From the sequence record MG049919: a stretch of 50,552 bases of DNA. One strand, given 5' to 3'. The first letter of the stretch is position 1. Each line of letters opens with the position of its first letter. The DNA comes from Shigella phage vB_SflS-ISF001. The translations under genes and the position numbers were made by a program. This document shows positions 14,417 through 39,160 of the stretch, one piece after another. The notes beneath the pieces are model-generated. The model was given only the letters and a program-made list of their open reading frames with translations. It had not been told where the DNA came from and ran no database searches.

Positions 14417-15373
14417 ATGGGGCAAGGAATATACATAAATCTAAATGACGGTCGCCCGGCAATGGAGATAATTTCAGGGCTTCGCGCCCCGTCATGGTGC
14501 GGACCTATACAGGCTGACGCGGTTGATTCATCTGGATCGGTTTTTGATTTTGGTTTGCAAATGAGTCGAGGGTCTACTGCTTTTTGCCTTCCATCTCAGG
14601 CTATCTACATAGACGTTAAGCATTACATCCCGGAGGTGTATTATTTGACCAGTTTTCAGAAGGTCAATGTTTCAACCGGACGAATAACGGTAGGTAATTT
14701 AAACGGGCATGGTGGAACGAGGATGAGATTTTATGGAAACTGCTACGAAATCCTCCCCGCTCAGGATGGAAATCAGGGGATACTTGTTAACGATTCAACG
14801 AACTTCGCAGCGATCCCTAATAACGCAAGATTGATGAGCGCAAAATTTGTTGGCGGGATTCAAGTTAACGGTCAGGCTCAGTTGCCAGTACAGGGCGTTC
14901 CTTTCGGTATCTGGGATAATCCAAACGTAACACTTGAATCTGACGGCAATACAATATCATGCAGGGATGCAAACTATAACGGGATTGATGACGTTGGCGC
15001 TAGCGTTTACGTGCAACTCGTAATATTTAATAATACTCCACCACCTCCTGGGCCTGGAATAACTATGAGTAACCCTGCTGGGCAGATCGTTTTCTCAAGC
15101 GTCAGACGCCCCTTCGTTCTTGGCGGGACGATGGCGATAAATGATGGTTGCCAGTGGTGCGGTGGATTTTTCCCAATCCTGAGAACAGGTACGATATGCA
15201 GAGTTACAGGTGGATATAATAACATTCGATACAAGGGCGTTTGCATCAGCGGCGGTAACGTGAGAAGCGCACCCGGAACAAGGGTAGGTAACTATTTTAC
15301 TCAGAGCGGCGCTCAATTTCCCTTCAATATAAACATTTCAATGCCTATTCCTTTCACTCCAAACATGTATTAA
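14417..15373 (+). CDS. hypothetical Pro/Cys-rich protein (318 aa), possible receptor-interaction or exclusion factor
   Basis: ATG overlapping upstream stop; PPPPPGPG linker; Cys-rich C-terminus; ends at bidirectional terminator shared with J. Confidence 0.5.
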   Translation: MGQGIYINLNDGRPAMEIISGLRAPSWCGPIQADAVDSSGSVFDFGLQMSRGSTAFCLPSQAIYIDVKHYIPEVYYLTSFQKVNVSTGRITVGNLNGHGGTRMRFYGNCYEILPAQDGNQGILVNDSTNFAAIPNNARLMSAKFVGGIQVNGQAQLPVQGVPFGIWDNPNVTLESDGNTISCRDANYNGIDDVGASVYVQLVIFNNTPPPPGPGITMSNPAGQIVFSSVRRPFVLGGTMAINDGCQWCGGFFPILRTGTICRVTGGYNNIRYKGVCISGGNVRSAPGTRVGNYFTQSGAQFPFNINISMPIPFTPNMY

Positions 15374-15400
15374 AAAAAAGGGGCCAATCAGCCCCTTTCT
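15371..15400. terminator. bidirectional terminator between 14417-15373 gene and J
   Basis: A8 - GGGGC CAATCA GCCCC - TTTCT. Confidence 0.6.
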
Positions 15401-15467
15401 GTTACCAGACATCTACATCCTCTGGGTCCCCGGTTGGTTGGATATCCGTGATTTCGTTATTGATTAT

Positions 15468-18400
15468 CTAAACCGAGTTAATAGTTCCGATAAATCCAAA
15501 CGATTCGTTATCCGCATACAGAGCACCCGTTACGGTAGCATTCATGAAGTACGCAGCACCATTCTTGTTAATATGCAACCCTTGATTTCCATCCCAATTG
15601 TTAGACTGAATACCGTTACCAATCTTTGCGTTAGTAATAAATCCATCCTTGATGATCGCGCTACTTAGAATAGCCTGACCATTCTCAACAACGAATGGAT
15701 ACTGAGTCTGACCGTTCATGGCTGTGATCATCGCAAATCGAGATGCCTCAAAAAGAATCTGAGCCTTAACACCCCCAGCTGAACCAATCAGAGACATAGC
15801 CATACCTGCGCTGTATTCCTGACCATTATACTTAAGGCCCAGCTTGACGCCGTACATTGCACCAGTCGAATCGGCGTTACTCCACGAGTCAAGTTTTTGA
15901 GAAAGTGCTGCCTCGTTATTCCCAAGTCGCGCGCTTAACGTTAAGTCAGCTTGCGTTCTCGCCACAGTCTCGTTCGCGATGGCTTCACGGATATCGGTCA
16001 AACTTGCCTGATTATCATCACCAATCTCTGCCTTGAGTTGGTCAATCTCACGAGATAGCTCCCCTGTCTCAGTTGCGATAACTTCACGCAATTCACTATT
16101 GCTTGCGTAAATCTGATCGCCAAAACTTGCTTTCAATTGCTCGATCGCCGTCACTCTTGCCTGCGTCTCATCAGCAATAAGTTTCAGTGATTTCGTGTAC
16201 TCAGGCTTTCGTTTTCCGTTCTCCTTCTTCATATAGATCGCGTCTTTGTCATGAGCTAACGCGTTCTCAATTGACGCTTCCGCGTTCGCTGCGTTCTGCG
16301 ACGCGTTGCCTGTTGCGTTATCAACAAGCCACTTGTAGCCAGGCGAGATTTCTATATCGACAGAAATCTCTCCGATGATATCGTCAACGTTTGTTAATGC
16401 CATACCTCTGACAAAATCAGTCCACTGAGACACATTACCGATCGTGTCAACCGTCCTTACCCGATACCACACAATATTCCCGCCCGGCATCTGTGAATGA
16501 TAATACTCATGCTGCGGATACGGGATCAGAGAGAGTAAACTCGCATTGTCAACCGTTCCATCCGGTGACTGTTGCAACTCTGTATAGGCCGTATCTCCAG
16601 AACCATCAGAGAACCCCCATTTTGTACGGATACCAAAAACAACATCATCAGTAGCCGTAAGGTTAATCGGTCTGCCCGGCTCACCTTGTTTGCCAGTCAG
16701 CGTCGCAGCTACGATATTTGACCATCCTGAAGTCGTACCGGAACCAGCTACGGAGCGAACGCGAACCTGATAGTTGCCAGCGTAAATACCCTCAACGTAA
16801 ACCTCTTTGTTTGCTGTCTGCGGAACGTTTTGCCAGTTGCCGTTATCCTTTCTCCACTGTACGTCATAGAAAACTGCGTACGGCACTTTATCCCAGCTAA
16901 CAATCATCGTTTCTACGCTCATCCCCTGGACGATTCTCGACTCTGAGGACACTTGCACGTTTTCCGGTCTAGGGATCTGATCTGGTTCAACGATGCTCGT
17001 CGGTCGGTCGTCGATGTTAACTCCGTAATCAATCTCGTCGTACTTGTTAGGATCGTACTCCACCGCCGTGATTTTGTAGGTAAATTCCTCGTCATCATCG
17101 CCCTTATCGATTTTTGTCACGACGTACTGTTGTAGCGCAATGTCGGTGCGGTCGATAGCGAATACCGTGTTAGGCTTCACAGGAAAGCCAAAGCCAATGT
17201 TAACCTCTATAGTCTTACCATCCGCACTAACACTTGAGATTGTGCGCTTCACGGGCTTGCCGTCGGGCTTATTTACGATAATAAAGTCACCTGCGCGCGC
17301 ATCCACACGGAACGGCAAGAAAATCTGGCTTCCAGACACTTCAAGCAAGCGCCCTGATAGGTTCATAGTCAAGTTGCTTGACCAGAAGTTGTCGGCTATT
17401 GCCACAACATCACCTATTGTCGGGATCATACCTTCAAGCCCGGTAGCGAAGTTTACCGTAGTGCTGCGGAGGTTAGTTTTCAGAATCCATCTCCCGCGTC
17501 GGTTTGCCTCACTTCGACGTGTGCAGCCGATCGCTGTAATGCTCGTTACGTTGTTCCCGAACCGTAGAGTAGCCTCACGATCGAATACTGGCTCAACGTC
17601 CTGCTGATACATGTTTTGCTCGTCATCAAACATCACATTACACGTCGTGTACATACTCTTTTCGCTTGCGAACGTGTAGGAGAAGTCACCATTAACAACG
17701 TTGTCGTTAGTGAAGATGTACGCAGGTTCACGCGGCCTGTCGATGATTACCGAAATGCTTTCGCCATTCCAAAAGCTCATACCTCGAAAGATTGAGCAAA
17801 TATCTCGAATAACCTTGTAAGCGTCAGTCTGAGACTGGATTATCACGTCGCAAAGGTATCGAGGCTCCGTCCCTCCCTTCCCATCAGGAACCATCTGATC
17901 GCAATATTGCGCGGCCTCGTAGAGCGCCCATTTATCGACGGAGATCCCAAGCTCCTTCTGATCCAGTCCGTAGCGCTGATTAATCATCAGGTCGTATAGA
18001 ACCCATGCCGGGTTGTTAGTCCAAGCCTTCTTGAAAGTCCCATCCCAATTTCCGTTGTAGGTTCGAGACTCAGGGTCGTAATTAGATGGAACGTTAATAA
18101 TCTTCCAGCGCTTACGAATTGAGATCGTAGGCAGCTGGTTTGGGAACATTTTCGAATCAAACTCGACAAAAAGAAGACCAGTCAGAGGATAACGGAATTT
18201 GGCATCAATCACCTCGGCATAGCTTTTCACCTGAATTGCATCAACGACATTCGAGTCACTTGAGTCAGGAGTCTTTCGAACAACTCTGAATATTACCTGG
18301 TTGTTGAAGTTCGGCAGGTTTACGCGACGGCTTCGATCATAACCCGACATTGTTTTGCCTTCGATTACATCAGTAAGAACAGTCTCAAACGAACCGCCAT

Positions 18401-18851
18401 CAACCGCTTGCTGCACCTCGTACTCAACGCGAACGCCGTTTTTATCGCCGTTACTTTCAATTCGTACGCCGCGAGGCATGAACATTTTGATACGGATTGC
18501 CGACAGCGTTTTGTTGGTTACTGAGATCGTGTATGGGTTATCGGTAGTAACCTCACGATTTACAGTTACCTCGCTGGAGCTATCTTCCATGCCCTTGATG
18601 TATTCCTGCGTCTGAGTTCCCGACCTGTACCCACCCCTTCCCTCGGCGAAGATGTACCATGCAACCTCGTTTTGCACCAAAACTGAGTTAAACATCAACT
18701 GCTTTAGGCTGAATGTTTCGTCAATTTCACCATCAGATACAGCTAACAGGTTTATGTTTATGATGTTTAAGTTATGTATCCCAACCATCTCAACTGGGTT
18801 ATGAGGCTTCTGTGACCCACCCTTAGATGAATTTATCACTTTTTGAATCAT
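15468..18851 (-). CDS. central tail fibre / host specificity protein (lambda J-like)
   Basis: 1127 aa, last gene of the M-L-K-I-J module; size and position as in lambda gpJ. Confidence 0.8.
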   Translation of the reverse strand: MIQKVINSSKGGSQKPHNPVEMVGIHNLNIININLLAVSDGEIDETFSLKQLMFNSVLVQNEVAWYIFAEGRGGYRSGTQTQEYIKGMEDSSSEVTVNREVTTDNPYTISVTNKTLSAIRIKMFMPRGVRIESNGDKNGVRVEYEVQQAVDGGSFETVLTDVIEGKTMSGYDRSRRVNLPNFNNQVIFRVVRKTPDSSDSNVVDAIQVKSYAEVIDAKFRYPLTGLLFVEFDSKMFPNQLPTISIRKRWKIINVPSNYDPESRTYNGNWDGTFKKAWTNNPAWVLYDLMINQRYGLDQKELGISVDKWALYEAAQYCDQMVPDGKGGTEPRYLCDVIIQSQTDAYKVIRDICSIFRGMSFWNGESISVIIDRPREPAYIFTNDNVVNGDFSYTFASEKSMYTTCNVMFDDEQNMYQQDVEPVFDREATLRFGNNVTSITAIGCTRRSEANRRGRWILKTNLRSTTVNFATGLEGMIPTIGDVVAIADNFWSSNLTMNLSGRLLEVSGSQIFLPFRVDARAGDFIIVNKPDGKPVKRTISSVSADGKTIEVNIGFGFPVKPNTVFAIDRTDIALQQYVVTKIDKGDDDEEFTYKITAVEYDPNKYDEIDYGVNIDDRPTSIVEPDQIPRPENVQVSSESRIVQGMSVETMIVSWDKVPYAVFYDVQWRKDNGNWQNVPQTANKEVYVEGIYAGNYQVRVRSVAGSGTTSGWSNIVAATLTGKQGEPGRPINLTATDDVVFGIRTKWGFSDGSGDTAYTELQQSPDGTVDNASLLSLIPYPQHEYYHSQMPGGNIVWYRVRTVDTIGNVSQWTDFVRGMALTNVDDIIGEISVDIEISPGYKWLVDNATGNASQNAANAEASIENALAHDKDAIYMKKENGKRKPEYTKSLKLIADETQARVTAIEQLKASFGDQIYASNSELREVIATETGELSREIDQLKAEIGDDNQASLTDIREAIANETVARTQADLTLSARLGNNEAALSQKLDSWSNADSTGAMYGVKLGLKYNGQEYSAGMAMSLIGSAGGVKAQILFEASRFAMITAMNGQTQYPFVVENGQAILSSAIIKDGFITNAKIGNGIQSNNWDGNQGLHINKNGAAYFMNATVTGALYADNESFGFIGTINSV

Positions 18852-18898
18852 GATGTTTACCTTTTTGTGCTATTTATCGGTGGACTCATTATACAGGC

Positions 18899-18923
18899 GA
18901 AAAAAAACCCGCGCAAGGCGGGT
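18899..18923 (-). terminator. intrinsic terminator-like hairpin between I and J
   Basis: Plus AAAAAAAACCCGCGCAAGGCGGG = minus-strand hairpin + U8; identical to element at 21080-21101. Confidence 0.5.
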
Positions 18924-18928
18924 TAATT

Positions 18929-19528
18929 TTAACTCATATCCTCGGCATAAGAACCTGCTGAGAAAGTTGCGCCACCTCCGGCGCGATATCCATACGGGAC
19001 CGGGAGAGGGTATCCCGCCGCCGTCGTATTGACAGCACCGCCGAACACGTACGAAGGTTTATTCTTGCTTGATTGAACTTCAAAGTTTGCGCCACCCGGC
19101 TGCGGTGAAATCATCTGCATCACGCCGCCCAGCACCATAGCGCCGCCCATCATAAACAGAGACGAGGACATTGTGCCCATTAAAGCCAGAGACGCGCCGC
19201 CAGTATAGAATGCTGCAACCATTATTGCCGCGCCCAATACAACCTGGAATAGACCTCCTGTCTTAGAGCCAGTAGGGATCGGTACGATTCTTATCTCTTT
19301 CGCGCACTTGATTTTTTCCTCTTCATGGTGTCCAACGTTAACGCCATCCACATATATTGCAAATTTGCTACGAGATCCTTTCTCGCTTAGCTTGTATTCT
19401 TTGAATCCATCTACCTGACTGGATAGCGCCAGGATAGCTTCCGGGTAAGAGTCAACGGCGAATCTGTGAAAGACGCCGTAGCGCCTTCCAAGTGAACCTG
19501 ATAATTTGATTACTTTTACATCATTCAT
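18929..19528 (-). CDS. tail assembly protein (lambda I-like)
   Basis: 199 aa with C-terminal hydrophobic Gly-rich segment; position between K-like and J-like genes. Confidence 0.65.
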   Translation of the reverse strand: MNDVKVIKLSGSLGRRYGVFHRFAVDSYPEAILALSSQVDGFKEYKLSEKGSRSKFAIYVDGVNVGHHEEEKIKCAKEIRIVPIPTGSKTGGLFQVVLGAAIMVAAFYTGGASLALMGTMSSSLFMMGGAMVLGGVMQMISPQPGGANFEVQSSKNKPSYVFGGAVNTTAAGYPLPVPYGYRAGGGATFSAGSYAEDMS

Positions 19529-20259
19529 AATTTAAGATCCTTATGGCGAACAATTAAAACAGTATGATCCTGATACCAGCCGGAATAGATATCACGTCGC
19601 GAAAGTTTGCCAAAGGCGTGATGCAAGATCTGATTATCACCCAGGTAAATGCCTGCGTGGTTCCATACCGGAACATTTTGCCCTATCTGCATGATTACCA
19701 TATCCCCGGATGATGGGTTATTCTGATCTGGAATCTCAACGAATCCATCTTGCTTGTAATAATCCTGATAGAGATTAATTCCGTACTCCGGTTTCCACCA
19801 TTCAAAATTCAATCGGCGATCGCGTAACTCTACGCCGTGCTCTTTGTGCCACGCCATAACAAGACCGTAACAGTCGAATGATCCTAATGACCACGGACGA
19901 CCAATCAGAGGTAATTTCTCTGGCTTCACAAATCGCATATCCCCTTCAGGCACGCTAACAATGATCCAGGTAACTTCCATCTCGTTGCACATGCACGTAT
20001 CGTGAGCGCTTGGTAGAGTTGTAGCCCCGTCTCCTGTATGACTATGAACAATTGCGATCGTAGTTGATTCCGCATCGTCCTCAATGCAAGCGTATTGTAC
20101 AGCATCCATCATGAAATGATTCTCGGGATCACGATGCACATTATCAATGCGATGGTATTTTTGCACTCGGCCCTTTTGGGTGACTACCCCGCAGCATTCG
20201 CGTGGGTATTCTTCTTGAGCGTGAGTCATAATTTCAAGTTTAATTTTTGCACTAATCAT
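19525..20259 (-). CDS. tail assembly protein (lambda K-like; MPN/JAB + NlpC/P60)
   Basis: JAMM-like HSHTGDGATTLPSAHD and C-terminal Cys/His peptidase-like region; start at ATG with AGAGGAAAAATCA RBS overlapping L stop (track ORF to 20292, TTG). Confidence 0.7.
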   Translation of the reverse strand: MISAKIKLEIMTHAQEEYPRECCGVVTQKGRVQKYHRIDNVHRDPENHFMMDAVQYACIEDDAESTTIAIVHSHTGDGATTLPSAHDTCMCNEMEVTWIIVSVPEGDMRFVKPEKLPLIGRPWSLGSFDCYGLVMAWHKEHGVELRDRRLNFEWWKPEYGINLYQDYYKQDGFVEIPDQNNPSSGDMVIMQIGQNVPVWNHAGIYLGDNQILHHAFGKLSRRDIYSGWYQDHTVLIVRHKDLKL

Positions 20260-21038: not shown

Positions 21039-21079
21039 TGATTTTTCCTCTTGTTTACCTGCAACCATTCTACAGCTAC

Positions 21080-21105
21080 AAAAAAACCCGCGCAAGGCGG
21101 GCTTT
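21080..21105 (-). terminator. intrinsic terminator-like hairpin between M and L
   Basis: Plus AAAAAAACCCGCGCAAGGCGGGCTTTTG; exact 22-nt repeat of 18901-18922. Confidence 0.5.
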
Positions 21106-21117
21106 TGTTATGTGGCG

Positions 21118-21471: not shown

Positions 21472-21473
21472 TA

Positions 21474-24347: not shown

Positions 24348-24364
24348 ACAACCCCCTTATATAC

Positions 24365-24386
24365 AAAAAAACCGCCAGACGGCGGC
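24365..24386 (-). terminator. intrinsic terminator-like hairpin between T and tape measure gene
   Basis: Plus AAAAAAACCGCCAGACGGCGG = minus hairpin + U7. Confidence 0.5.
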
Positions 24387-24656
24387 TTAGATATTCTGCT
24401 TAGCAATCATTTCAAGCGCTTTCGCTTCCATGATCATAATGTCCTGCAATGCCAGTTCTACATCTTCTATTTTATAGATTTTAAACAACATAGGCAAAAC
24501 ATTATAGTCAAGAGCATAAGCGGCAGCGCCTGAACTTCTCCACTGAATGAGCATTGATGTAAAAACATTCCAACCCTTCACCATTTCAGCGTCGCCAATT
24601 ATCGTTTCAAATTCCTCGTCTTCATAGTCTGAAAGACTTGAACCAACCGATCGCAT
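24387..24656 (-). CDS. tail assembly chaperone T segment (candidate G-T frameshift product)
   Basis: ORF in -1 frame relative to G, open back through the 3' end of G; own ATG with GAGGAA RBS also present. Confidence 0.5.
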   Translation of the reverse strand: MRSVGSSLSDYEDEEFETIIGDAEMVKGWNVFTSMLIQWRSSGAAAYALDYNVLPMLFKIYKIEDVELALQDIMIMEAKALEMIAKQNI

Positions 24657-24703
24657 TTGTTCCTCTGTTGGCGGCTTCTGATATAACAGATAGACCGCCT
24701 TTT

Positions 24704-25021
24704 TTAGATTTTTGCGCGGTGTCCGGCAAGAGCCTTGATGTAAGTCGCTGTCAAGTTGTACGCTGCTGAAGGATAATACTGAACCAGTTTTAGCGCATTT
24801 TCTTCGTTAAATTCTTCTACAAGGTTCCATCCTGACGCGATCTTGGTATTGAACTCGCTGTCGTTCATTTCTCCCCGGTTGGCAGACATATCCTGAACTT
24901 CTTTACTGGAAAGGTGGCGTACAGTGAAAATGATCGTTGCATCTTCACCGTTAGGCTTGGCGAAGGTAACTGGAAGTTTGCAGTCTGGACGTTGACCAAG
25001 AATAAAATTAAATCTACCCAT
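24704..25021 (-). CDS. tail assembly chaperone (lambda G-like)
   Basis: 105 aa between major tail and tape measure genes; CAGGAG RBS; A-rich tract at 3' end. Confidence 0.65.
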   Translation of the reverse strand: MGRFNFILGQRPDCKLPVTFAKPNGEDATIIFTVRHLSSKEVQDMSANRGEMNDSEFNTKIASGWNLVEEFNEENALKLVQYYPSAAYNLTATYIKALAGHRAKI

Positions 25022-25042
25022 GATATTTCTCCTGATTGGTTA

Positions 25043-25062
25043 ATGGCACTTTTTGTTAAAAG
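25043..25062 (-). promoter_or_regulatory. 20-mer motif copy immediately upstream of G gene RBS
   Basis: Plus-strand ATGGCACTTTTTGTTAAAAG; inverted relative to early cassettes. Confidence 0.45.
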
Positions 25063-25102
25063 AGAATAGTGCAAACTTGATACGATGATTTTACAGAAAT
25101 GA

Positions 25103-25123
25103 ATAAGGGGGCGCAAGCCCCCT
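25103..25123 (-). terminator. hairpin downstream of major tail gene (weak terminator/attenuator)
   Basis: GGGGGC-GCAA-GCCCCC; minus strand followed by TTATTCATTT. Confidence 0.4.
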
Positions 25124-25135
25124 TGTGGATATGAT

Positions 25136-25801: not shown

Positions 25802-25806
25802 CATAA

Positions 25807-26205: not shown

Positions 26206-26638
26206 TTTGTTGTCTCCTTGCTTGCTTTATTGCGTCTGCCATATACGATAGCAATCTCAATGCAACCAGCCCGACGACGCCGTTTGGTGCTAATTGTGAA
26301 TGACCGTACTCAAGAGAGCCTGCATAAATTAACATGTTTGAGAAGTGAACGGATGTTATAACGCCCCCACGGCTGAACATGGCATAAGATTTGGCTTGCT
26401 CCTCACTACGGACAACGACGCCAGTTCTATCGTATCGATTTAATGCGTAGTTAGGGATTTCGTTAAAAGTTAACTGCCAGTTACCCAAAAAGCGCCCCGT
26501 GTCGACGGGAGAAAGGCTAACGAGCGCGTCGTGAACATCCCTTACAAAAATCTCAATGGAATGTTCTAACGTGCTTTCAGCGGCCTTAATCCACGCATCA
26601 ATCTCACCTTGAAATCTACGAATCTGATAATTAGCCAT
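26195..26638 (-). CDS. HK97 gp10-like neck/tail component
   Basis: PVDTGRFLGNW resembles the VDTGRLRNSW signature of HK97 gp10 family. Confidence 0.55.
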   Translation of the reverse strand: MANYQIRRFQGEIDAWIKAAESTLEHSIEIFVRDVHDALVSLSPVDTGRFLGNWQLTFNEIPNYALNRYDRTGVVVRSEEQAKSYAMFSRGGVITSVHFSNMLIYAGSLEYGHSQLAPNGVVGLVALRLLSYMADAIKQARRQQNAL

Positions 26639-27412: not shown

Positions 27413-27424
27413 AATTTCCACCTA

Positions 27425-27448
27425 TAAAAAAAGGCGCATTAAGCGCCT
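27425..27448 (-). terminator. intrinsic terminator-like hairpin
   Basis: Plus AAAAAAAGGCGCATTAAGCGCCTT = minus hairpin + U7. Confidence 0.5.
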
Positions 27449-27454
27449 TGTTGA

Positions 27455-27745: not shown

Positions 27746-27760
27746 TTTGATTTCTCCAAT

Positions 27761-27788
27761 AAAAAAGGGACCAACTAAGTTAGTCCCT
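27761..27788 (-). terminator. intrinsic terminator after major capsid gene
   Basis: Plus AAAAAAGGGACCAACTAAGTTAGTCCC = minus hairpin + U6. Confidence 0.55.
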
Positions 27789-27794
27789 ATAATA

Positions 27795-28754
27795 TTACAC
27801 GCCAGTGATTGAGACAATAGTCATCGGACGATAAATTGTAAGGCCAGTACACTTGGAGGTGCAAGGCACTTTATAGTGAAGGTCTTTCGGCTGCGCTGGC
27901 AGCATGTTAAATGCTTCCGGGATCTCGATGGACTTTTTCATCGGATTTTTTTCGTACACCAGTACGCCTTTAGTACCCGCACCGTTGATATCTTCAAGCT
28001 CTTCGATAGAGTCGATTTCGATACCAGCATTCTGAGACTTGAAAAAGTCCAGGTAAGACATGGTAGTTTCAGGCATACGGATCGCCAGAACCTTACGCAT
28101 GGACGGCGGGATCAGAATGTTGGTTGCACGATGCTGACCGCGAGTAATCGTCTCGATGGTTTCAATCGCCTGAGTCAATTCCGCTTCAGCCGTTTCCGGC
28201 TTCGGAGTTGAGACATTCATCCACTTACCGGAGGTAATTTTGGTGATGTTCGGATGGTTGAACACGGACACGATCTTGTGCGGCGCGGAACCTTTGAACA
28301 CCAGACGGTTAACCAGTTGGTCATGCGCTAACTGACACGCGCTTGCCTTGCGGGTTGACAGCGGTCGACCAGTTGCCTGACCTGCTTTGATTTCGTCGAT
28401 TGAAATCAGGTACGCGTTACCCAAGCGGAACACCTTACCGAACTCAGAAGTACCAAGCGCATCACCCAGAGGCAGGTCATCTGTATAGTCAGCGATAATC
28501 TGCGCACTACCACCCTTATCAAAGGTCATATACACAAACATCTTGTCGGTCGGAGATAGATCGGTAGTAAACGGGAATACTCGAAGTGCGGAGCCTACCG
28601 GGTAGTCTTCTACATAGGACTGGCTTTTGATGCGGTGTAGTTCCTGAGCGGGCCAGATAGCCATCGTTGCGGCTGCATCCTGTGTTACGCCAGCCTGGAT
28701 CAGAGACATTTCAACATTGCTCTTAGCTGCTTCATCAAATTTTTTAGTAGTCAT
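27795..28754 (-). CDS. major capsid protein (putative)
   Basis: 319 aa, downstream of scaffold and decoration genes and followed by a strong terminator; TAAGGAG RBS; no motif-level confirmation. Confidence 0.6.
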   Translation of the reverse strand: MTTKKFDEAAKSNVEMSLIQAGVTQDAAATMAIWPAQELHRIKSQSYVEDYPVGSALRVFPFTTDLSPTDKMFVYMTFDKGGSAQIIADYTDDLPLGDALGTSEFGKVFRLGNAYLISIDEIKAGQATGRPLSTRKASACQLAHDQLVNRLVFKGSAPHKIVSVFNHPNITKITSGKWMNVSTPKPETAEAELTQAIETIETITRGQHRATNILIPPSMRKVLAIRMPETTMSYLDFFKSQNAGIEIDSIEELEDINGAGTKGVLVYEKNPMKKSIEIPEAFNMLPAQPKDLHYKVPCTSKCTGLTIYRPMTIVSITGV

Positions 28755-28774
28755 GATTACTTCTCCTTAGTTAA

Positions 28775-28804
28775 TAAAAAAAGCCGTGATTATGTTCACG
28801 GCTT
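28775..28804 (-). terminator. intrinsic terminator-like hairpin between decoration and capsid genes
   Basis: Plus AAAAAAAGCCGTGATTATGTTCACGGCT = minus hairpin + U7. Confidence 0.5.
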
Positions 28805-28809
28805 CAATA

Positions 28810-28828
28810 ATAGCACTTTTTGTTAAAG
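28810..28828 (-). promoter_or_regulatory. 20-mer motif copy upstream of major capsid gene
   Basis: Plus-strand ATAGCACTTTTTGTTAAAG; followed on minus strand by hairpin plus U-run and RBS. Confidence 0.45.
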
Positions 28829-28846
28829 CGTCAAAGTATTTTTGTG

Positions 28847-29614: not shown

Positions 29615-29628
29615 AGTATTTTCTCCAT

Positions 29629-29656
29629 AAAAAAAGGACTACCCAAAAGGATAGTC
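29629..29656 (-). terminator. intrinsic terminator-like hairpin between the two decoration paralogs
   Basis: Plus AAAAAAAGGACTACCCAAAAGGATAGTCC = minus hairpin + U7. Confidence 0.5.
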
Positions 29657-29673
29657 CCCATATTAAACACTAA

Positions 29674-30150
29674 TTACTGTTGATGCAACTGAACTTCAAC
29701 AGGCTGAATGTCTCTATATTTGGTCCAGCCGCCAACGTAGGTCCAAGTTGTTTCGATCGTACCATCAGATTTCTCTTGACCGTCAACGTCAAGTTTTGCA
29801 GCGGTCCCGAAGGTTGGTGCTTTTTCTGATTTGGAAAGCATCCAGACTCGCCCGGAGGTCATGACGTTGTTAGCACCGACATCTTCGTAAATCATCTGAT
29901 TATCTCTGTTCACAGTCTGCCAGTGAGATCGAATAGCTACGGCATACGGCACTTTAGACGATTCCATAGCCTTAACCAATTTATGGCCGTCAACGGCTTG
30001 GCCTTGAACAACCTGTACGGCAGCGCCAACAAAAACATCACCTTCGTTACCGACGCAAGCGTCATCAATAATATACTTCGAAGTAGCCGCAACCATACCC
30101 GGAAGCGCATTAGCCATGACTCGCTGATAAGATGCATTAATCTGTGCCAT
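29674..30150 (-). CDS. head decoration-like protein (paralog of 28847-29614 N-domain)
   Basis: Shared blocks PYAVAIRS / PYGIAIRS and WTYVGGWTKY / WTFAGGFVKH; AGGGGA RBS. Confidence 0.5.
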   Translation of the reverse strand: MAQINASYQRVMANALPGMVAATSKYIIDDACVGNEGDVFVGAAVQVVQGQAVDGHKLVKAMESSKVPYAVAIRSHWQTVNRDNQMIYEDVGANNVMTSGRVWMLSKSEKAPTFGTAAKLDVDGQEKSDGTIETTWTYVGGWTKYRDIQPVEVQLHQQ

Positions 30151-30161
30151 GATATTTCCCC

Positions 30162-31274
30162 TTACATTACTTTGCTTGAACGTGAATTTGGCGTAACAGG
30201 TGCGGCGTCGTTTTTCTCTTCCGGCTTACCGCCTTCGATAGAATCGCCTTTTACCGCCTTACGCTGAATAGCCTTAATATCAGAATCCTGAGCAACATCA
30301 AACATAGCGACGATATATGCGTCTGATTTTTCGCTAAGATCTTTATCAAGCATAGCTATGACAACAGCGACCTTAACGTCTTTGAGATCAAGACCCTCAT
30401 GTTTAACGCCTGCGGTTTCCGCTACTGCGGTGACTTCAGCACGCGCTGCGGCGTCAGCTTTTTGCTTCTCTACTTCGGCCTTCACCACTTCCGGCCGGGA
30501 GTCAACCTTAACCTTCAGCGCATCGCGCTCAACTTCTAAGCCATCAGCTTTCCCCTGAATGTTGGCAATCTGCGCGGTTAATTTTTCCATACGGTTCACA
30601 ACATCTTCGGTCACTTCCACATCAACTGAGTCGATCTTAATTTTTTTCATTTGCTTGTCCTCGTTAGTTAATTGAACGTTATTATCATACGGGAACTCCT
30701 GCTCGTCATCAAGGTTTAATTTAGCAATTCCAGCGCGACCCTTGAAAACAAGTGCAATGTGGTTTACCTTGATGTTTGTTTGAACAGCATCGAATTTAAC
30801 CCAACCTTCAGGCGGCGCTTCGTCCTGTTTCATATCCTCTTCGAAGATATATTCTCCAGTCTCATTTGAACCCCATCCCGGCTTATCAATATCTACTGAC
30901 GTGTAGCCAACAGATAATTCACCAGCTTCTTTTGCTTTAGCCTTGCTGATCGCGTAGTCGCTGTAAATGCTCAAAGGGACTACAACTCCAACGCCTGAAG
31001 CAATACCAGGGCCAGCGCACGATCCTACAACAACGTCCTTAGCATTTTGCGGAGTCACCGTTACGTGACCTACTGTGATCGGCTTGCCTGCAAAACTTTG
31101 CAAGGAATCTTGCTTCAAAACTTCGAACGCCGGACGGTACTCAACGCGATCGCGGTGGGGAGTCTTGTAAACCTGAGCACCGATTCGCGCCACGATGGGA
31201 CGGTCAACCAACAAACCATTAACATCAAAGTGCGCCTTGATTTTTACCGGGTCGAATCTCTGCTTTGCCTTCAT
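30162..31274 (-). CDS. capsid scaffolding protein (possibly protease-scaffold)
   Basis: Coiled-coil, Lys/Glu/Ala-rich C-terminal half; between MuF-like and decoration genes; start at ATG with AGGAG RBS (track ORF to 31319). Confidence 0.5.
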   Translation of the reverse strand: MKAKQRFDPVKIKAHFDVNGLLVDRPIVARIGAQVYKTPHRDRVEYRPAFEVLKQDSLQSFAGKPITVGHVTVTPQNAKDVVVGSCAGPGIASGVGVVVPLSIYSDYAISKAKAKEAGELSVGYTSVDIDKPGWGSNETGEYIFEEDMKQDEAPPEGWVKFDAVQTNIKVNHIALVFKGRAGIAKLNLDDEQEFPYDNNVQLTNEDKQMKKIKIDSVDVEVTEDVVNRMEKLTAQIANIQGKADGLEVERDALKVKVDSRPEVVKAEVEKQKADAAARAEVTAVAETAGVKHEGLDLKDVKVAVVIAMLDKDLSEKSDAYIVAMFDVAQDSDIKAIQRKAVKGDSIEGGKPEEKNDAAPVTPNSRSSKVM

Positions 31275-31276
31275 TT

Positions 31277-32038
31277 TTAATCTCCTGTATAAAAGACTGG
31301 AACAGCCCAACAGGGGCAATTGTCTTCTTCACCAGGGAATACGAGATCGGAATCTACCGCTATCCGCTTACCTTCCCATCTTACATGTTTTTCACGTTCG
31401 CGTAAATCCATCACCCCGCCCCAGAAATAGTAATAGACTTCAGCGTCTTTTATGCGCGGCCGCATCCGTCTACTGTTCCAGGTTCCGACAATTCCCGACG
31501 CTCTATTTTTGGCCCAATTCCGGTTAATACCAAATCGCTCCTTAGCAAGATCAACAACAAAATCATTGCTTTTACCCTGACCGAATGCCGCACGAAGTTT
31601 AGCAGTGAAATCAGTAACCATGTTGGCGGCAAATTTCCTGATAGAAGTAGTCACCTGCGATCGCCACAGATTATATTGTCCTGAGTACCAGTTTTCGGCA
31701 GCGGTAGGACCAATCAGGGCAAGTAGCATTACGGCTTGATTCTTCTTACCTCCAGCATTTCGAGCTATTCGCAACCACTGCTTAGAGTTGAATTTATAGA
31801 TAGTTAGCGCGTCGGATGATAGAGATCCGATAATCGGCGCGATTAGAGATCCGACGTAATCAAGCAATGACATTTCCGCTTTGTCTATCTCTTCGTCGGT
31901 AGCGTCAATTTTCATCGGCTTTAATTCGTCACGCATTGTTTCAGTTAGTTTGTCTGCAACATCCTGTAGGGAGCGCGACATTGCGCGCTCGCTCATTTCA
32001 GGATAGCGCCACTGTGTTGCAACGCCATTAATCTTCAT
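31277..32038 (-). CDS. head morphogenesis protein (Mu F / SPP1 gp7-like)
   Basis: 253 aa immediately downstream of and overlapping portal gene, the usual place for MuF-like minor head protein. Confidence 0.55.
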   Translation of the reverse strand: MKINGVATQWRYPEMSERAMSRSLQDVADKLTETMRDELKPMKIDATDEEIDKAEMSLLDYVGSLIAPIIGSLSSDALTIYKFNSKQWLRIARNAGGKKNQAVMLLALIGPTAAENWYSGQYNLWRSQVTTSIRKFAANMVTDFTAKLRAAFGQGKSNDFVVDLAKERFGINRNWAKNRASGIVGTWNSRRMRPRIKDAEVYYYFWGGVMDLREREKHVRWEGKRIAVDSDLVFPGEEDNCPCWAVPVFYTGD

Positions 32039-33311
32039 CTTCTAACTTCTCCCCTGATCCCGGCTCCGGCCCTGTTGTTTCTTCCGGTTCGCGAAAGTTG
32101 ATGTTATTACCATCCTTGAGTTTGAACTCAGGCGCAATGGATAGCAACGTGTCGCGAGCTTCTTCCAGATCGATGATTTGCTCGGTGATGGCTTTCGTTG
32201 CCGACTCAATGTTGCTCTTCGTGATCTCGGATTCTTCTTTCTTGCTCGGGACCGACAGCGGCTCAAACTCGATGGACCACTCTTCTGAGTCAACAATGAA
32301 TGGCAAAATAAACTCAAGAAGCGGCCTGTAATCCTCTTCTCGTTTACGATCGATTAACTTATAGAAAGTCTCAAGCGCTGTGTTCTGACTGGCTGATACG
32401 CCACCAACGTTCTTATTCTTGATGATAATCTCATGAATACCAGAAAGCGAGACAATGCGGTCCATCTTGCTTGATAGGAACTCAGGAACTCCGCTGATAT
32501 CAGAGTTTAGAACGTCGTATTCTTCCGTCTCGGCATCGATACCGATCGCACGGCCAACACCTGAATTATCGTCAAACTGAGCCAGTCTCAAGCGCGCTCC
32601 ATACTGAGCATCATCATCATCACACATTTCAGCAAGACCTTTGACTTTCCATACCGCCTTCTGCTTACGCCACAGGATCTGAGTCGCTAGAGATTCGCAG
32701 TAGTCGTAATCGCAGATCGCATCAATCAGTGACTTGTTCAAAACTGAAGCACCCCTCCCTTGATTCTGCTTTCGAATCTGAGGTGTTACTCGCTCACCAT
32801 CAGCAATAAAAATTCTTGTGTGGTGGATTAAGTAAGGTTGAAGATTATCTCCAGGAGATACCATGTATATCGCAGGCTCACCATAGCGAGGCGATTGAGC
32901 ATTGGTTACTCTTTTTTCGATTGTAATTGCGAATCTATCATAAACACGCACACCTTCAAGTTTAGCTCCAGGTTTAACAGGGCTGGTTAACATTCTGTTG
33001 TCATTAATGATCGCTACAATAGCCGCTCCACCGTATAGGCTCGCCCAGCAAAGAACATCAACCAAGCTAGGATCAATTTTGTAACTATCCCACAGAGATT
33101 TGAACTCCTTTTCATCCTTGACTCCTGATATTTTAAAACCAGCCGTAACCATCTCTTCAGGGATCACGTCGACAATTCTTTTCTCTGTCGCGTTATCGTT
33201 ATAGAATGGGCCGACGTTATATGACGCATCAACCATAAAAAATGGTTTAGGTGAGCCGTCCGCGCCGCCGCTAAAGTTATCGTTATAACCATCATGCTTA
33301 ACAATTTTCAT
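32028..33311 (-). CDS. portal protein
   Basis: 427 aa directly downstream of large terminase; acidic C-terminus; GGAGG RBS. Confidence 0.75.
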   Translation of the reverse strand: MKIVKHDGYNDNFSGGADGSPKPFFMVDASYNVGPFYNDNATEKRIVDVIPEEMVTAGFKISGVKDEKEFKSLWDSYKIDPSLVDVLCWASLYGGAAIVAIINDNRMLTSPVKPGAKLEGVRVYDRFAITIEKRVTNAQSPRYGEPAIYMVSPGDNLQPYLIHHTRIFIADGERVTPQIRKQNQGRGASVLNKSLIDAICDYDYCESLATQILWRKQKAVWKVKGLAEMCDDDDAQYGARLRLAQFDDNSGVGRAIGIDAETEEYDVLNSDISGVPEFLSSKMDRIVSLSGIHEIIIKNKNVGGVSASQNTALETFYKLIDRKREEDYRPLLEFILPFIVDSEEWSIEFEPLSVPSKKEESEITKSNIESATKAITEQIIDLEEARDTLLSIAPEFKLKDGNNINFREPEETTGPEPGSGEKLEDED

Positions 33312-33324
33312 ACTTTCCCTCCAA

Positions 33325-33350
33325 TAAAAAAGGCCGTCAATTGACAGCCT
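33325..33350 (-). terminator. imperfect terminator-like hairpin between TerL and portal
   Basis: Plus AAAAAAGGCCGTCAATTGACAGCCTT; one mismatch in stem. Confidence 0.4.
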
Positions 33351-33367
33351 TGATTATATCTCATTTA

Positions 33368-34936
33368 TTACCGCTTAACCATCCCAGCGAGTCGCTTCAT
33401 TCTCTCGATAGGATCATCAATGGTCAGCAATTCGATGTTCGCCGCATCCATGAAGCTATCGACGATATCATCATGCGGATGGGTGTCATCGTAAGTGAAG
33501 GAGCTATGTTCTGCGATGATTTCCGCAAGCATAGGGTGCTCTTCTGGAAGAACCACGCGCCCTGCCTTAATTACTGGCTGAGCAGCCATAGCTCGGGTAA
33601 CTTTATCTTTGTTACGCTGCAATGGTGTGATTGAGATCGGAGTCTTTTTCCTTAAGTTCTGAATCAAGCCCGTCCCGCTCGCCTTATCTTCCACGTAGAT
33701 TTTGCGAAGCACGCCCATTGATTTATTGGGCCTCCATGCCTGACTCACAAAGGCGGTAAATTGTATCTCCATATCAGGCGCTTCCCACTTGCCGCGAATG
33801 CCGTCGATAAAGTAAACCTTATCGGTTTTCTTACCCCATAAACAAAAGACTGTGTAGTCGTTTAGCTCACCTGTCTTCTGAGCGGTATCAGCGGTGATAA
33901 AACGGTAATCATATTTACCCGGATCTGGCTCGTCAGCGTCAAGGCTGCTTCCGTAATAAGTCCACCACGCCGAGTTAAACACGGAGCCACCAAGCGCTAT
34001 CGGCATCTGCTGATACGGAGAGTCAAAGGTATACTGGTCCGCTTCTCGAAGAGCTAACAGGTCGTGAACGCTTTCCTTGCTGGGCCAGAATGAGTAATGC
34101 TTAACTCCATCCAATTCTACATACTCAGACGACAAAACGTCGCGCTCGAAGTATGGTTGTGACCAGTCAGGAAGCCTCTTTCCGTATTTCTCAGTTACTA
34201 GTGCCGGAATCGAGATCTGATCAAACTCAATACCCATACCTCCAATCATCATAAACCAAGTTGAATCCTGCGCGTGCAGTCGCTTCTGGATTGCGATAAT
34301 CGGCGTCTCGTTGTGCATACGACGGGATCGTATGGTGTTCTTTAATAGCATGTGAGTACGCTCACGCTTAACCTTTGAGATCATATCGACAGGCTTGTCT
34401 ATATCGTCGAGCATTACCATCCCGGAGAATCCTGGCGTCATGTAGCCGGCACGCGAACCTGTAATTCGACCGCCAGCCGCTGCGGAGATTAGTTCGAACC
34501 AGACCTTACCCTCGCTGTTAAGGATTTGCATCTCTTCGTCTTTTGATGTGCCGAACTTACAGGGCCATAGCTCCTGGAACACGTTGCTGCTGATAATCTC
34601 ACGCACTCGCTTACTGTTACGCTTAACCAGACTATCGGCAGACGACACGTTAAGGTTTCGCACCTTCTTACACTTGAGCATCGCGTAAACCGGAAGGTGG
34701 ATTGGGAACACCTCAGTCTTACCGAAACCGGGCGTGGCGTTAAAGATAGTATTCCCGCGTCGGCTTGCAATAATTTCCTCCACTTCGTGGCATAGGTAAA
34801 GGTGATGCCAGTTAGGCTGGAACTGCTGCGCCTGCATAAGCTGGAACCAGATCCGAATCATTTTTTCGAAATTGGCCTCGCTCATTTTCTTGATCCCTAA
34901 CTTCTGAGTTGCGTCGAGTTCTTCCCATTGAATCAT
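33368..34936 (-). CDS. terminase large subunit
   Basis: Walker A NATPGFGKTE; C-terminal nuclease-like region; start at ATG with CAGGAG RBS (track ORF begins at GTG 34969). Confidence 0.85.
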   Translation of the reverse strand: MIQWEELDATQKLGIKKMSEANFEKMIRIWFQLMQAQQFQPNWHHLYLCHEVEEIIASRRGNTIFNATPGFGKTEVFPIHLPVYAMLKCKKVRNLNVSSADSLVKRNSKRVREIISSNVFQELWPCKFGTSKDEEMQILNSEGKVWFELISAAAGGRITGSRAGYMTPGFSGMVMLDDIDKPVDMISKVKRERTHMLLKNTIRSRRMHNETPIIAIQKRLHAQDSTWFMMIGGMGIEFDQISIPALVTEKYGKRLPDWSQPYFERDVLSSEYVELDGVKHYSFWPSKESVHDLLALREADQYTFDSPYQQMPIALGGSVFNSAWWTYYGSSLDADEPDPGKYDYRFITADTAQKTGELNDYTVFCLWGKKTDKVYFIDGIRGKWEAPDMEIQFTAFVSQAWRPNKSMGVLRKIYVEDKASGTGLIQNLRKKTPISITPLQRNKDKVTRAMAAQPVIKAGRVVLPEEHPMLAEIIAEHSSFTYDDTHPHDDIVDSFMDAANIELLTIDDPIERMKRLAGMVKR

Positions 34937-34974
34937 ATCAATTCTCCTGTATGGGCGCTTGCGCGCCACTAACG

Positions 34975-35499
34975 TTAATGCATATCAAGAATGATGTTTA
35001 CTGCCTCTTTCATTGCATCCTCAGTAGTGGCGACTACTGTCGATGCGGAAGCTGACGAGTTTTCGATACTGATTGAGGCTGGCTTATCGATTCCCAAATC
35101 CTTACCGATAAAGGAGGCGTTATTCACACCGTTGGCAGCAAGCTGGAATTTTTGCTCGTTGATTACAGATTCCACGAACTCCATAACCTCACTGTACTCT
35201 TCCTCGCGTTTCCATTTATTGATTGCGGCCTCGCATGCTCCTATGAATAGTCGGTATCCGCTCCAAGTGAAGACGCGCGGCTGATGAACAAGTGACTCGT
35301 AAACGCCACCCTGGAAGCTGGCTGATTCTGACGCCTTGATCGCATTATCTTCGGCCCATTCATAATACTTAACTGACAGATCGAATAATTGCTCAGGAGT
35401 CATTCCCTGATTCTTCGCAAGAACAGAGCCAAACTTTTTCTTGTATAGCTCTCTGAAATTACCTCCCTGAACTACAGGGGCGTTCTTAGGTTCACTCAT
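34975..35499 (-). CDS. terminase small subunit (putative)
   Basis: 174 aa immediately upstream of TerL; AAGAGGA RBS; 20-mer motif just upstream. Confidence 0.55.
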   Translation of the reverse strand: MSEPKNAPVVQGGNFRELYKKKFGSVLAKNQGMTPEQLFDLSVKYYEWAEDNAIKASESASFQGGVYESLVHQPRVFTWSGYRLFIGACEAAINKWKREEEYSEVMEFVESVINEQKFQLAANGVNNASFIGKDLGIDKPASISIENSSASASTVVATTEDAMKEAVNIILDMH

Positions 35500-35513
35500 A
35501 AATCAATCCTCTT

Positions 35514-35534
35514 CGTTTAACATTTAGTGCTATT
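35514..35534 (-). promoter_or_regulatory. 20-mer motif copy upstream of TerS
   Basis: Minus-strand ATAGCACTAAATGTTAAAC about 15 nt upstream of RBS, after a terminator hairpin. Confidence 0.45.
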
Positions 35535-35552
35535 TTACCATATTGCAGGCAT

Positions 35553-35574
35553 AAAAAAACCCGCCGTAGCGGGT
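35553..35574 (-). terminator. intrinsic terminator between early gene block and TerS
   Basis: Plus AAAAAAACCCGCCGTAGCGGG = minus hairpin + U7, followed by 20-mer motif and TerS RBS. Confidence 0.55.
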
Positions 35575-35583
35575 TATTGATTA

Positions 35584-37288: not shown

Positions 37289-37344
37289 TTCGATTTTCTC
37301 TCTTCGTTGTCGATGAGGTGACTATATCAAATCACCCCACCGAC

Positions 37345-37364
37345 GTTTTAGCAATTAGTGCTAT
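37345..37364 (-). promoter_or_regulatory. early promoter cassette (20-mer + 22 bp + TATAGT in hairpin)
   Basis: Minus-strand ATAGCACTAATTGCTAAAAC; TATAGT within GGTGA/TCACC hairpin; leader CATCGACAACGAA. Confidence 0.6.
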
Positions 37365-39105: not shown

Positions 39106-39160
39106 GAGTGCTTCCTCGTTTGTTGGTGTAGGGGAATCATAGCGCATTCCCCTTGATAGG

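Follow-up and report, generated by a model that had tools for sequence, protein, structure and literature searches.

In the late region of Shigella phage vB_SflS-ISF001, hairpins followed by U-runs look like genuine intrinsic terminators, and no fewer than six or seven of them appear to be overlapped by conserved sigma-70-like promoters, in two geometries. Transcription restarted at these sites, combined with partial read-through, would explain late gene expression without a special antitermination system; we put the probability of this reading at about 0.65. The window (sequence record MG049919; the whole stretch of 50,552 nucleotides that was analysed) belongs to a T1-like phage (Drexlerviridae, Tunavirus) and has 97.8% identity to Shigella phage ISF002.

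Terminator-like hairpins in the late region

The late block was searched with a strict terminator scan (stem of at least 5 bp, at least 6 T in 8, dG <= -8), which replaced an earlier loose fold-based scan that had returned hundreds of weak matches on both strands. On the minus strand the strict scan found 9 sites, compared with 0.12 +/- 0.33 expected from 200 dinucleotide shuffles (maximum 1), and on the plus strand 3. Between 15370 and 35575 the minus strand contains ten strong hairpin plus U-run sites and a weaker one after the major tail gene, all of them intergenic, which bears out the first-pass annotation in its count of at least ten terminator-like hairpins with U-runs. The eleven sites (T0-T10) are listed below with the number of relatives in which they were found.

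35551..35575, minus strand: terminator T0, hairpin AACCCGCTACGGCGGGTT (35575-35558) and seven T, between the last early-left gene and TerS; 15/16 relatives
33324..33351, minus strand: terminator T1, hairpin AAGGCTGTCAATTGACGGCCTT (33351-33330) and six T, after TerL; 41/48 relatives
29627..29659, minus strand: terminator T2, hairpin GGGGACTATCCTTTTGGGTAGTCCTT (29659-29634) and seven T, after the 158-aa gene; 47/51 relatives
28773..28805, minus strand: terminator T3, hairpin GAAGCCGTGAACATAATCACGGCTTT (28805-28780) and seven T, after the 255-aa gene; 43/51 relatives
27759..27788, minus strand: terminator T4, hairpin AGGGACTAACTTAGTTGGTCCCT (27788-27766) and six T, after MCP; 52/53 relatives
27424..27449, minus strand: terminator T5, hairpin AAGGCGCTTAATGCGCCTT (27449-27431) and seven T, after the 96-aa gene; 35/42 relatives
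25095..25124, minus strand: terminator T6, hairpin AAGGGGGCTTGCGCCCCCTT (25124-25105) and interrupted U-run TTATTCATTTCT, after the major tail protein gene V; 46/51 relatives
24362..24388, minus strand: terminator T7, hairpin AAGCCGCCGTCTGGCGGTTT (24388-24369) and seven T, after T; 38/41 relatives
21078..21103, minus strand: terminator T8, hairpin AGCCCGCCTTGCGCGGGTT (21103-21085) and seven T, after M; 42/45 relatives
18898..18924, minus strand: terminator T9, hairpin AACCCGCCTTGCGCGGGTT (18924-18906) and eight T, after I; 45/47 relatives
15370..15398, minus strand: terminator T10, hairpin AAAGGGGCTGATTGGCCCCTTT (15398-15377) and eight T, at the end of J

Each of the eleven has a perfect stem of 5-11 pairs, at least five of them G-C, a loop of 3-6 nt and a folding energy between -10.4 and -16.3 kcal/mol; a site at 26510 with four G-C pairs was left out. 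The GC-rich stem of about 5-12 bp and loop of 3-8 nt typical of intrinsic terminators were thus present throughout, a U-run stood directly 3' of the stem (six to eight T at ten sites, interrupted after V), and the elements followed stop codons, all in intergenic positions, more often than expected by chance (9 versus 0.12).

The first-pass annotation had placed such hairpins at almost every gene junction. The hairpins are real, but they occupy 10-11 of the 22 junctions, namely every gap of at least 39 nt except G>T (X>Y denotes the junction between genes X and Y). At the remaining junctions the genes overlap or lie no more than 11 nt apart, and the TerS>TerL gap (38 nt) contains a hairpin at 34967-34954 that lacks a U-run. 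The terminator described after V has its hairpin, but its U-run is poor in vB_SflS-ISF001; in other genera the T-run at this position is intact, with seven to nine T. The G>T gap also holds a hairpin, which was rejected as a terminator because it falls within the reading frame of the G/GT frameshift and is not followed by a U-run on the sense strand.

At five junctions the U-run extends directly into the ribosome binding site (RBS), as it does after TerL, where the T-run of terminator T1 continues into the portal RBS, and after the 96-aa gene (terminator T5). Terminator T3 lies close upstream of the MCP RBS, and terminator T7, at the end of the G/GT chaperone gene, directly 5' of the tape-measure RBS. 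Terminators T8 and T9 have a 15-mer core in common. Terminator T10 is terminator-like on the plus strand as well, there for the convergent membrane-protein gene.

Conservation of the hairpins

Conservation was assessed in 68 related loci from at least six genera (MCP identity 44-94%), with about 50 non-identical sequences for each junction. A hairpin with a T-run was found in 83-98% of the non-identical relatives at ten junctions and in 0-14% at the other twelve. At each of the ten, 13-28 distinct hairpin sequences occur (23 for terminator T4) and the stems differ between genera: the elements keep their positions while their sequences turn over. MAFFT was unable to align stems differing in length and sequence, and RNAalifold predicted no structure for 16 diverse MCP-terminator sequences; presence or absence at homologous junctions was therefore scored, and formal covariation is not claimed. 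At protease>g158 other genera carry a GC hairpin without a U-run.

Promoter-like sequences at the terminators

Two arrangements of predicted promoters were distinguished. In type A the -10 element lies directly 5' of the hairpin. In type B the -35 element (TTGCGC or TTGTGC) is formed by the hairpin loop and 3' arm, the T-run falls into the 17-bp spacer, and the -10 element (TAnAAT) follows 8-10 nt past the T-run. The candidates are as follows.

25088..25116, minus strand: P_G, predicted, type B, TTGCGC (in the loop and 3' arm of terminator T6)-17-TAAAAT; 41/42 non-identical relatives versus 5.9 expected
21067..21095, minus strand: P_L, predicted, type B, TTGCGC (in terminator T8)-17-TAGAAT; 25/34 relatives versus 2.6 expected
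18888..18916, minus strand: P_J, predicted, type B, TTGCGC (in terminator T9)-17-TATAAT; 25/34 relatives versus 2.6 expected
28807..28834, minus strand: P_MCP, predicted, type A, TTGACG-16-TGcTATTAT; 10/12 consensus matches plus the TG
33353..33358, minus strand: candidate portal -10 element TATAAT, type A, 1 nt 5' of the terminator T1 hairpin
27789..27817, minus strand: candidate type A promoter at MCP>g96, TTGTCT-17-TATTAT, ending at the base of the terminator T4 hairpin
35532..35545, minus strand: presumptive TerS promoter, CAATAT then TGgTAAAAT (extended -10), 8-21 nt past the T-run of terminator T0

The type B geometry recurs in the relatives at V>G, M>L and I>J in the proportions given above, and in none of them after TerL, MCP, g96 or T. 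In 22 of the 25 relatives with P_J the -10 element is TATAAT. A first promoter scan, which needed room for a 5' UTR ahead of starts estimated by tblastn, had found only 12/40 at M>L; the 25/34 come from the hairpin-anchored scan.

Of the type A candidates, P_MCP was promoter-like in 40/40 relatives versus 13.4 expected and is conserved in Hanrivervirus, Sauletekiovirus and Webervirus; its -10 element stops 1 nt short of the terminator T3 hairpin. At TerL>portal 28/28 non-identical relatives have a TAnAAT-like hexamer 1-2 nt before the hairpin, compared with 8.1 expected from shuffles; the non-coding sequence around it diverges, and a clear -35 element was not found. The candidates at MCP>g96 and before TerS appear weaker than the others. 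A -10-like hexamer was present at MCP>g96 in 37/43 relatives versus 13.4 expected, and the candidate -35 element lies within the end of the MCP coding sequence, which confounds its conservation. At the TerS position Tlsvirus, Hanrivervirus and Webervirus relatives have TAAAAT, TATAAT or TATACT; the -35 of this candidate is weak.

At g96>g137 and T>TMP promoter-like sequences were found in 0/37 and 1/38 relatives, respectively, with no type B matches, and g158>g255 is probably without a promoter as well. It counts against the candidate promoters listed above that their -35 hexamers (TTGnnn) have only 3/6 consensus matches.

The 20-mer

The first-pass annotation counted only three copies of a 20-mer in the late block and argued from this that re-initiation cannot explain expression of the distal tail genes. 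With up to two mismatches allowed there are five matches; four lie between genes, and two run opposite to the genes. Four of the five are:

35533-35516: copy overlapping the candidate TerS promoter
28810-28827: inverted copy, making up the spacer and extended -10 of P_MCP
25043..25060, plus strand: copy in the G leader, running opposite to the late genes
18856..18873, minus strand: copy with two mismatches, in the direction of the late genes, abutting the start codon of J

The 20-mer was rejected as a late promoter, since it occurs in both orientations and its placement relative to the -10 element varies (upstream, in the spacer, over the -10, in the 5' UTR). A 150-aa HTH regulator encoded at 8048-8500 is the leading candidate for a protein that binds it. 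The argument against re-initiation failed because it took the 20-mer as the sole sign of a promoter. At V>G, M>L and I>J the terminators are overlapped by predicted, conserved sigma-70-like promoters; promoter elements were also recognized at g255>MCP (40/40 relatives) and TerL>portal (28/28).

Transcription of the late genes

We propose that the hairpin and U-run elements act as intrinsic terminators for the host RNA polymerase and would make of the late region a series of short transcription units that overlap in part, like the 'transcriptons' earlier proposed for phage T1. Most of the terminators would be physically coupled to a sigma-70-type promoter, of type B at V>G, M>L, I>J and probably before TerS, and of type A at g255>MCP, TerL>portal and possibly MCP>g96. 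Transcripts from type A promoters would start in or at the 5' arm of the hairpin and may thus escape their own terminator; a start a few nucleotides earlier would place the whole hairpin in the transcript, which could then terminate. Since g96>g137, T>TMP and probably g158>g255 have no promoter, the essential genes downstream would need read-through, and the terminators at these junctions would therefore have to be leaky attenuators. How much mRNA each module receives would then depend on local promoter strength plus upstream read-through, with MCP having its own strong predicted promoter and terminators on both sides. The antitermination or attenuation suggested by the first-pass annotation thus holds in part: attenuation appears necessary at the promoterless junctions, but no positive evidence was found for processive antitermination.

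The location of conserved promoters exactly at terminators argues that termination does occur there. Searches of the literature found no transcript data for T1-like phages; termination and initiation in vivo, their efficiencies and the start sites are predictions that we infer from the sequence. The presence of sigma-70 consensus-like promoters is not enough to explain why expression is late.

The late modules are flanked by terminators at conserved junctions, in agreement with the annotation of phages T1, Sazh and AHP42, as expected of transcriptons. Sigma-70 (RpoD)-type promoters inside the modules were recognized by sequence match, and two or three modules have no detectable promoter. In the 2024 phage TLS paper (PMC11447400) the late region of phage T1 is described as transcriptons flanked by terminators; using stricter criteria, its authors accepted only three sigma-70 promoters and did not confirm transcriptons in TLS, which counts against our explanation.

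The promoters embedded in terminators might also be devices for terminating and restarting, in which the polymerase would release its RNA, stay on the DNA and re-initiate at a -10 element only 8-10 bp downstream, or at one just 5' of the hairpin. According to Kang et al. 2020 (PMC6978380), a polymerase kept on DNA after RNA release could re-initiate at a nearby promoter, and the arrangement is similar, an intrinsic terminator followed within a few bp by a sigma-70 promoter. That study was single-molecule work in vitro on artificial templates, whereas in the phage recycling is only a possible mechanism, and we consider it unlikely. If it did operate, local recycling of polymerase, rather than read-through or fresh recruitment, would account for most expression of the 20-kb late region, and the 20-mer, as an operator overlapping several promoters at differing positions, might gate the timing.

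That the hairpins serve mainly at the RNA level, by protecting 3' ends after processing, stabilizing 5' ends or insulating the RBS, with termination secondary, seems quite unlikely to us. GC hairpins without U-runs do occur, at TerS>TerL and in other genera at protease>g158; a U-rich leader entering the RBS, as at the five junctions above, could help translation, and with type A promoters the MCP and portal mRNAs would begin with a stem-loop. A simple stabilizing hairpin needs no U-run, however, and the preservation of six to eight T directly after the stem in 83-98% of the relatives, even where a promoter and not an RBS follows, and also at the convergent end of J, speaks for intrinsic termination.

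In lambda (Q and N) and in HK022 (put), host polymerase is made to pass terminators by processive antitermination. A phage factor or RNA element acting in this way at or upstream of TerS would allow read-through of all late terminators late in infection. Such a system would suit the position of the late block, directly downstream of the early-left operon on the same strand, and the need for read-through at the promoterless junctions; a novel factor could be among the roughly 35 early proteins to which no function is assigned, and the 20-mer lies over the candidate TerS promoter as a loading site would. It is nevertheless improbable: Rfam at the gathering threshold gave no match, put/nut-type RNA elements included, in the 50.5-kb window, no antiterminator family was found among the non-structural proteins searched with Pfam (10) and PHROGs (40), none is annotated in the RefSeq records of phage T1, pSf-2 and ISF002, and conserved promoters at six or seven terminators would be needless for a terminator-resistant polymerase.

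Pure attenuation, with a single promoter upstream of TerS driving the 20-kb block and leaky terminators stepping the mRNA down to set protein ratios, would fit terminators that follow discrete functional groups and junctions without a promoter, but is most improbable, because monotonic decay would give more terminase mRNA than major capsid or major tail mRNA, opposite to the stoichiometry expected from the established virion composition, because almost nothing would reach J past ten terminators, and because conserved internal promoters are predicted.

Comparison with other phages and significance

The closest parallel to this late region is that of phage T1, which is of the same genus and has the same gene order and terminators at homologous junctions. 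Its RefSeq record (NC_005833; annotation by Roberts, Martin and Kropinski 2004) lists rho-independent terminators at the homologous late junctions: before TerS, at the site homologous to terminator T0, and after TerL, gp49, MCP, gp46, major tail, gp39, gp37, gp34 and gp33; the terminators listed include one after the J homologue. The GenBank records of Sazh and AHP42 have terminators annotated at the same junctions, and that of AHP42 a promoter overlapping the V terminator. The hairpin after the 255-aa gene (terminator T3) is absent from the T1 annotation though present in the T1 sequence, and the two geometries of promoter overlap and their conservation across six genera were worked out in the present analysis.

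The lambda late operon (pR'-qut, tR') resembles this region: both are long operons of head and tail genes read in one direction, with terminators that late transcription meets on its way, and the tail genes here (V, G/T, H, M, L, K, I and J) are lambda-like. Lambda has one late promoter and Q, whereas here neither a Q-like protein nor a qut-like arrangement was found and internal promoters are predicted. In phage T7 a partial terminator, T-phi, follows gene 10, the most abundant structural gene, and raises its mRNA relative to downstream genes. The terminator after the major capsid gene is similarly placed here, but T7 has its own RNA polymerase and one main terminator, while vB_SflS-ISF001 would use the host polymerase and about eleven terminators, most of them apparently paired with a promoter.

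The terminator pattern itself is already known; it has been part of the phage T1 annotation since 2004 and recurs in many Drexlerviridae records. The finding is thus ordinary, with one added architectural detail, and is of little gain for basic knowledge. It is of use for annotation, as ISF002, the closest relative, carries no annotated regulatory features, and for phage engineering, where the junction cassettes would provide compact, conserved units of terminator, promoter and RBS, as predicted. The promoter-terminator overlaps, strictly conserved in six genera, may offer a convenient natural system for studying the balance of termination, read-through and re-initiation by the host polymerase.

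Terminator-like hairpins in the late block

The late genes are all encoded on the minus strand, in the order TerS, TerL, portal, head morphogenesis, protease, 158-aa gene, 255-aa gene, MCP (major capsid protein), 96-aa gene (g96), four connector genes, major tail protein V, tail chaperones G/T, tape measure (TMP), M, L, K, I and J. Identity over the 20-kb block was 97.8% with Shigella phage vB_SsoS-ISF002 and approximately 90% with many Tunavirus phages (T1-like, Drexlerviridae). A terminator tool scan and a separate strict scan agreed on ten strong hairpin plus T-run elements.

Hairpin plus T-run elements of the late block (start, strand)
35575, minus, strong, both scans
33351, minus, strong, both scans
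29659, minus, strong, both scans
28805, minus, strong, both scans
27788, minus, strong, both scans
27449, minus, strong, both scans
24388, minus, strong, both scans
21103, minus, strong, both scans
18924, minus, strong, both scans
15398, minus, strong, both scans
25124, minus, eleventh hairpin, after V, U-run interrupted

When all junctions were read, every element proved to be intergenic, following the stop codon of one gene and preceding the start codon of the next. Each gap of at least 39 nt contained an element, with G>T as the sole exception, and at the remaining eleven junctions the genes overlapped or were at most 11 nt apart. Under the strict criteria the sense strand of the block had 9 sites, compared with 0.12 +/- 0.33 in dinucleotide shuffles and 3 on the antisense strand. 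The pattern reported in the first-pass annotation is therefore real and far above chance, although "almost every junction" was an overstatement for a count of 10-11 out of 22.

The 38-nt TerS>TerL gap carries a GC-rich hairpin (GGCGCGCAAGCGCC, 34954-34967) lacking a U-run. T1 and pSf-2 have kept this hairpin; no more than 18 nt separate TerS and TerL in other genera. The 47-nt G>T "gap" is the G/GT -1 frameshift region (24670-24713). It contains an A-run (24713-24709) and A AAA AAG (24705-24699), and after these a GC-clamped hairpin of 30 nt (24699-24670). The T reading frame stays open across the stop codon of G. Of the eight relatives compared, seven have a gap of this length and AAS23 has one of 53 nt; the frameshift product is annotated in the Sazh record. 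Strong terminator-like hairpins outside the block were found at 1026-1046, 9496-9513, 11387-11405 (bidirectional) and 39497-39522; that at 9496-9513 is followed by an inverted copy of the 20-mer repeat and then a side tail-fibre gene, an arrangement also seen at MCP and G. AT-rich repeats (TAAATATTATCTATCTATATATATTATATA and relatives) at two strand-switch regions (13990-14019 and 44757-44805) could represent an origin or a divergent promoter region.

Conservation of the hairpins

Eight GenBank relatives from six genera were compared: T1, pSf-2, ISF002, Sazh (Tlsvirus), aaroes (Hanrivervirus), AAS23 (Sauletekiovirus), RAD2 (Webervirus) and AHP42 (Rogunavirus). To these were added 60 IMG/VR loci retrieved with MCP.

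Non-identical sequences with a hairpin plus T-run at most 60 nt from the stop codon
After pre-TerS gene, 15/16
After TerL, 41/48
After 158-aa gene, 47/51
After 255-aa gene, 43/51
After MCP, 52/53
After 96-aa gene, 35/42
After V, 46/51
After T, 38/41
After M, 42/45
After I, 45/47
After the other twelve late genes, 0-14% each

The hairpins at any one conserved junction comprised 13-28 distinct sequences; the sequence turned over while position and shape were retained. The U-run after V (25095-25104) is degraded in Tunavirus (TTATTCATTTCT) and is T7-T9 in other genera (loci L004, L007, L008 and L005), and the embedded promoter is retained despite this degradation. The T1 lineage may have lost part of this terminator's strength.

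Candidate promoters coupled to the terminators

When the junctions are aligned across genera, putative sigma-70-like promoters are seen to be linked with the terminators in two arrangements. In type A, a -10-like hexamer stops 0-4 nt short of the hairpin on its 5' side. In type B, the hairpin's loop and 3' arm hold the -35 (TTGCGC or TTGTGC), the 17-bp spacer contains the T-run, and the -10 (TAAAAT, TAGAAT or TATAAT) is located 8-10 nt past it.

Candidate promoters (all minus strand)
35540-35532, before TerS, extended -10 TGgTAAAAT past the T-run
28834-28807, P_MCP, upstream of MCP, type A, full promoter TTGACG-16-TGcTATTAT
27817-27789, after MCP, type A-like, TTGTCT-17-TATTAT, -35 inside coding sequence
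25116-25088, V>G, type B
21095-21067, M>L, type B
18916-18888, I>J, type B

Type B geometry was present at V>G in 41 of 42 non-identical relatives (5.9 expected with the downstream 28 nt shuffled) and in 25 of 34 at M>L and again at I>J (2.6 expected at each). It was absent from the TerL, MCP, 96-aa and T terminators. A promoter-like site upstream of MCP was detected in 40/40 relatives (13.4 expected). After TerL, the type A hexamer resembles TATAAT and stands 1-2 nt ahead of the hairpin in 28/28 relatives (8.1 expected); this gap is otherwise divergent. Other genera have TATAAT or TATACT at the pre-TerS position. Promoter-like elements were found in 0/37 relatives at g96>g137 and in 1/38 at T>TMP; at both junctions the T-run continues directly into the ribosome-binding site. 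The earlier conclusion that re-initiation cannot explain distal expression had counted only the 20-mer as a promoter, and is refuted by these coupled promoters.

The cassettes at I>J (18887-18931), M>L (21066-21110) and before TerS (35539-35583) form a paralogous repeat family (D9) with units of 45 nt. An identical 15-mer (CCCGCCTTGCGCGGG) occurs in the hairpins of I>J and M>L, which points to a duplicated or gene-converted terminator-promoter cassette.

The 20-mer repeat

At up to 2 mismatches the window contains 29 copies (0.39 expected). Five, not three as first counted, are in the late block; four of these are intergenic, two of them inverted relative to the genes. An inverted copy (28810-28827) forms the spacer and extended -10 of P_MCP, and another (25043-25060) lies in the leader of G. 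The copy at 35516-35533 overlaps the -10 before TerS, and that at 18856-18873 directly adjoins the start codon of J. Among Hanrivervirus-like relatives (L007 and similar), the repeat spans the stop codon of TerL, and 5 nt separate its end from TATAAT. Because its placement relative to -10 elements is inconstant, the 20-mer was rejected as the promoter itself; this variability suggests a protein operator, with possible roles in repressing late and activating early promoters. In the early regions (37303-43601, minus; 44916-49135, plus) the 20-mer ATAGCACnnnTTGnTAAA has the same orientation as the genes, and an extended -10 (TGnTATAGT or TAGAAT) follows at a constant 22 nt, within a palindrome whose arms differ between copies (families D1 and D2). 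These features resemble a separate class of early promoter, equipped with an operator or UP-like element upstream.

Proposed restart and read-through

The simplest reading is a more detailed form of the published transcripton model. Leaky intrinsic terminators would close each module, and in most modules transcription would begin again at a promoter that overlaps or adjoins the terminator. The best candidate promoter belongs to MCP, which is the most abundant protein and has a predicted terminator on either side of its gene. Type A transcripts would escape the terminator if they start in the 5' arm of the hairpin, which hinges on the exact start site. The promoterless modules (connector genes through V; tape measure through M) would rely on read-through, so the attenuation proposed earlier probably operates there, at g96>g137 and T>TMP.

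Polymerase that stays on the DNA after termination and re-initiates has been demonstrated in vitro by Kang et al. 2020 (PMC6978380); by analogy, retained polymerase might re-initiate at the adjacent promoter, which we consider improbable here. Antitermination, the other mechanism first proposed, is unsupported; a novel factor may act, but this is improbable. Rfam gave no match across the window, and Pfam and PHROGs revealed no antiterminator family among 40 non-structural proteins, only a Cro-like HTH regulator (8048-8500; phrog_2856) and a DUF3850 protein (40173-40460), about 35 being of unknown function. The conserved placement of promoters at terminators speaks for polymerase halting at these sites. 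An attenuation cascade from a single promoter is unlikely, since terminase mRNA would exceed capsid and tail-tube mRNA and almost none would be left for J.

For T1 and its relatives this late terminator pattern has been recorded before: at homologous junctions the T1 RefSeq record carries the annotation "rho-independent transcriptional termination site", the Sazh and AHP42 records likewise place terminators there, and 21 intergenic terminators have been described in phage TLS (PMC11447400) and 18-21 per genome in Rogunavirus phages (PMC4070988). The TLS paper presents the T1 late region as "transcriptons" bounded by terminators, and lists a 21-nt repeat, aaATAGCACnnnTTGnTAAAA, as an element of unknown function (PMC11447400). 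The literature searched contained no transcript data for any T1-like phage. To this picture the conserved overlap of promoter and terminator adds a modest detail.
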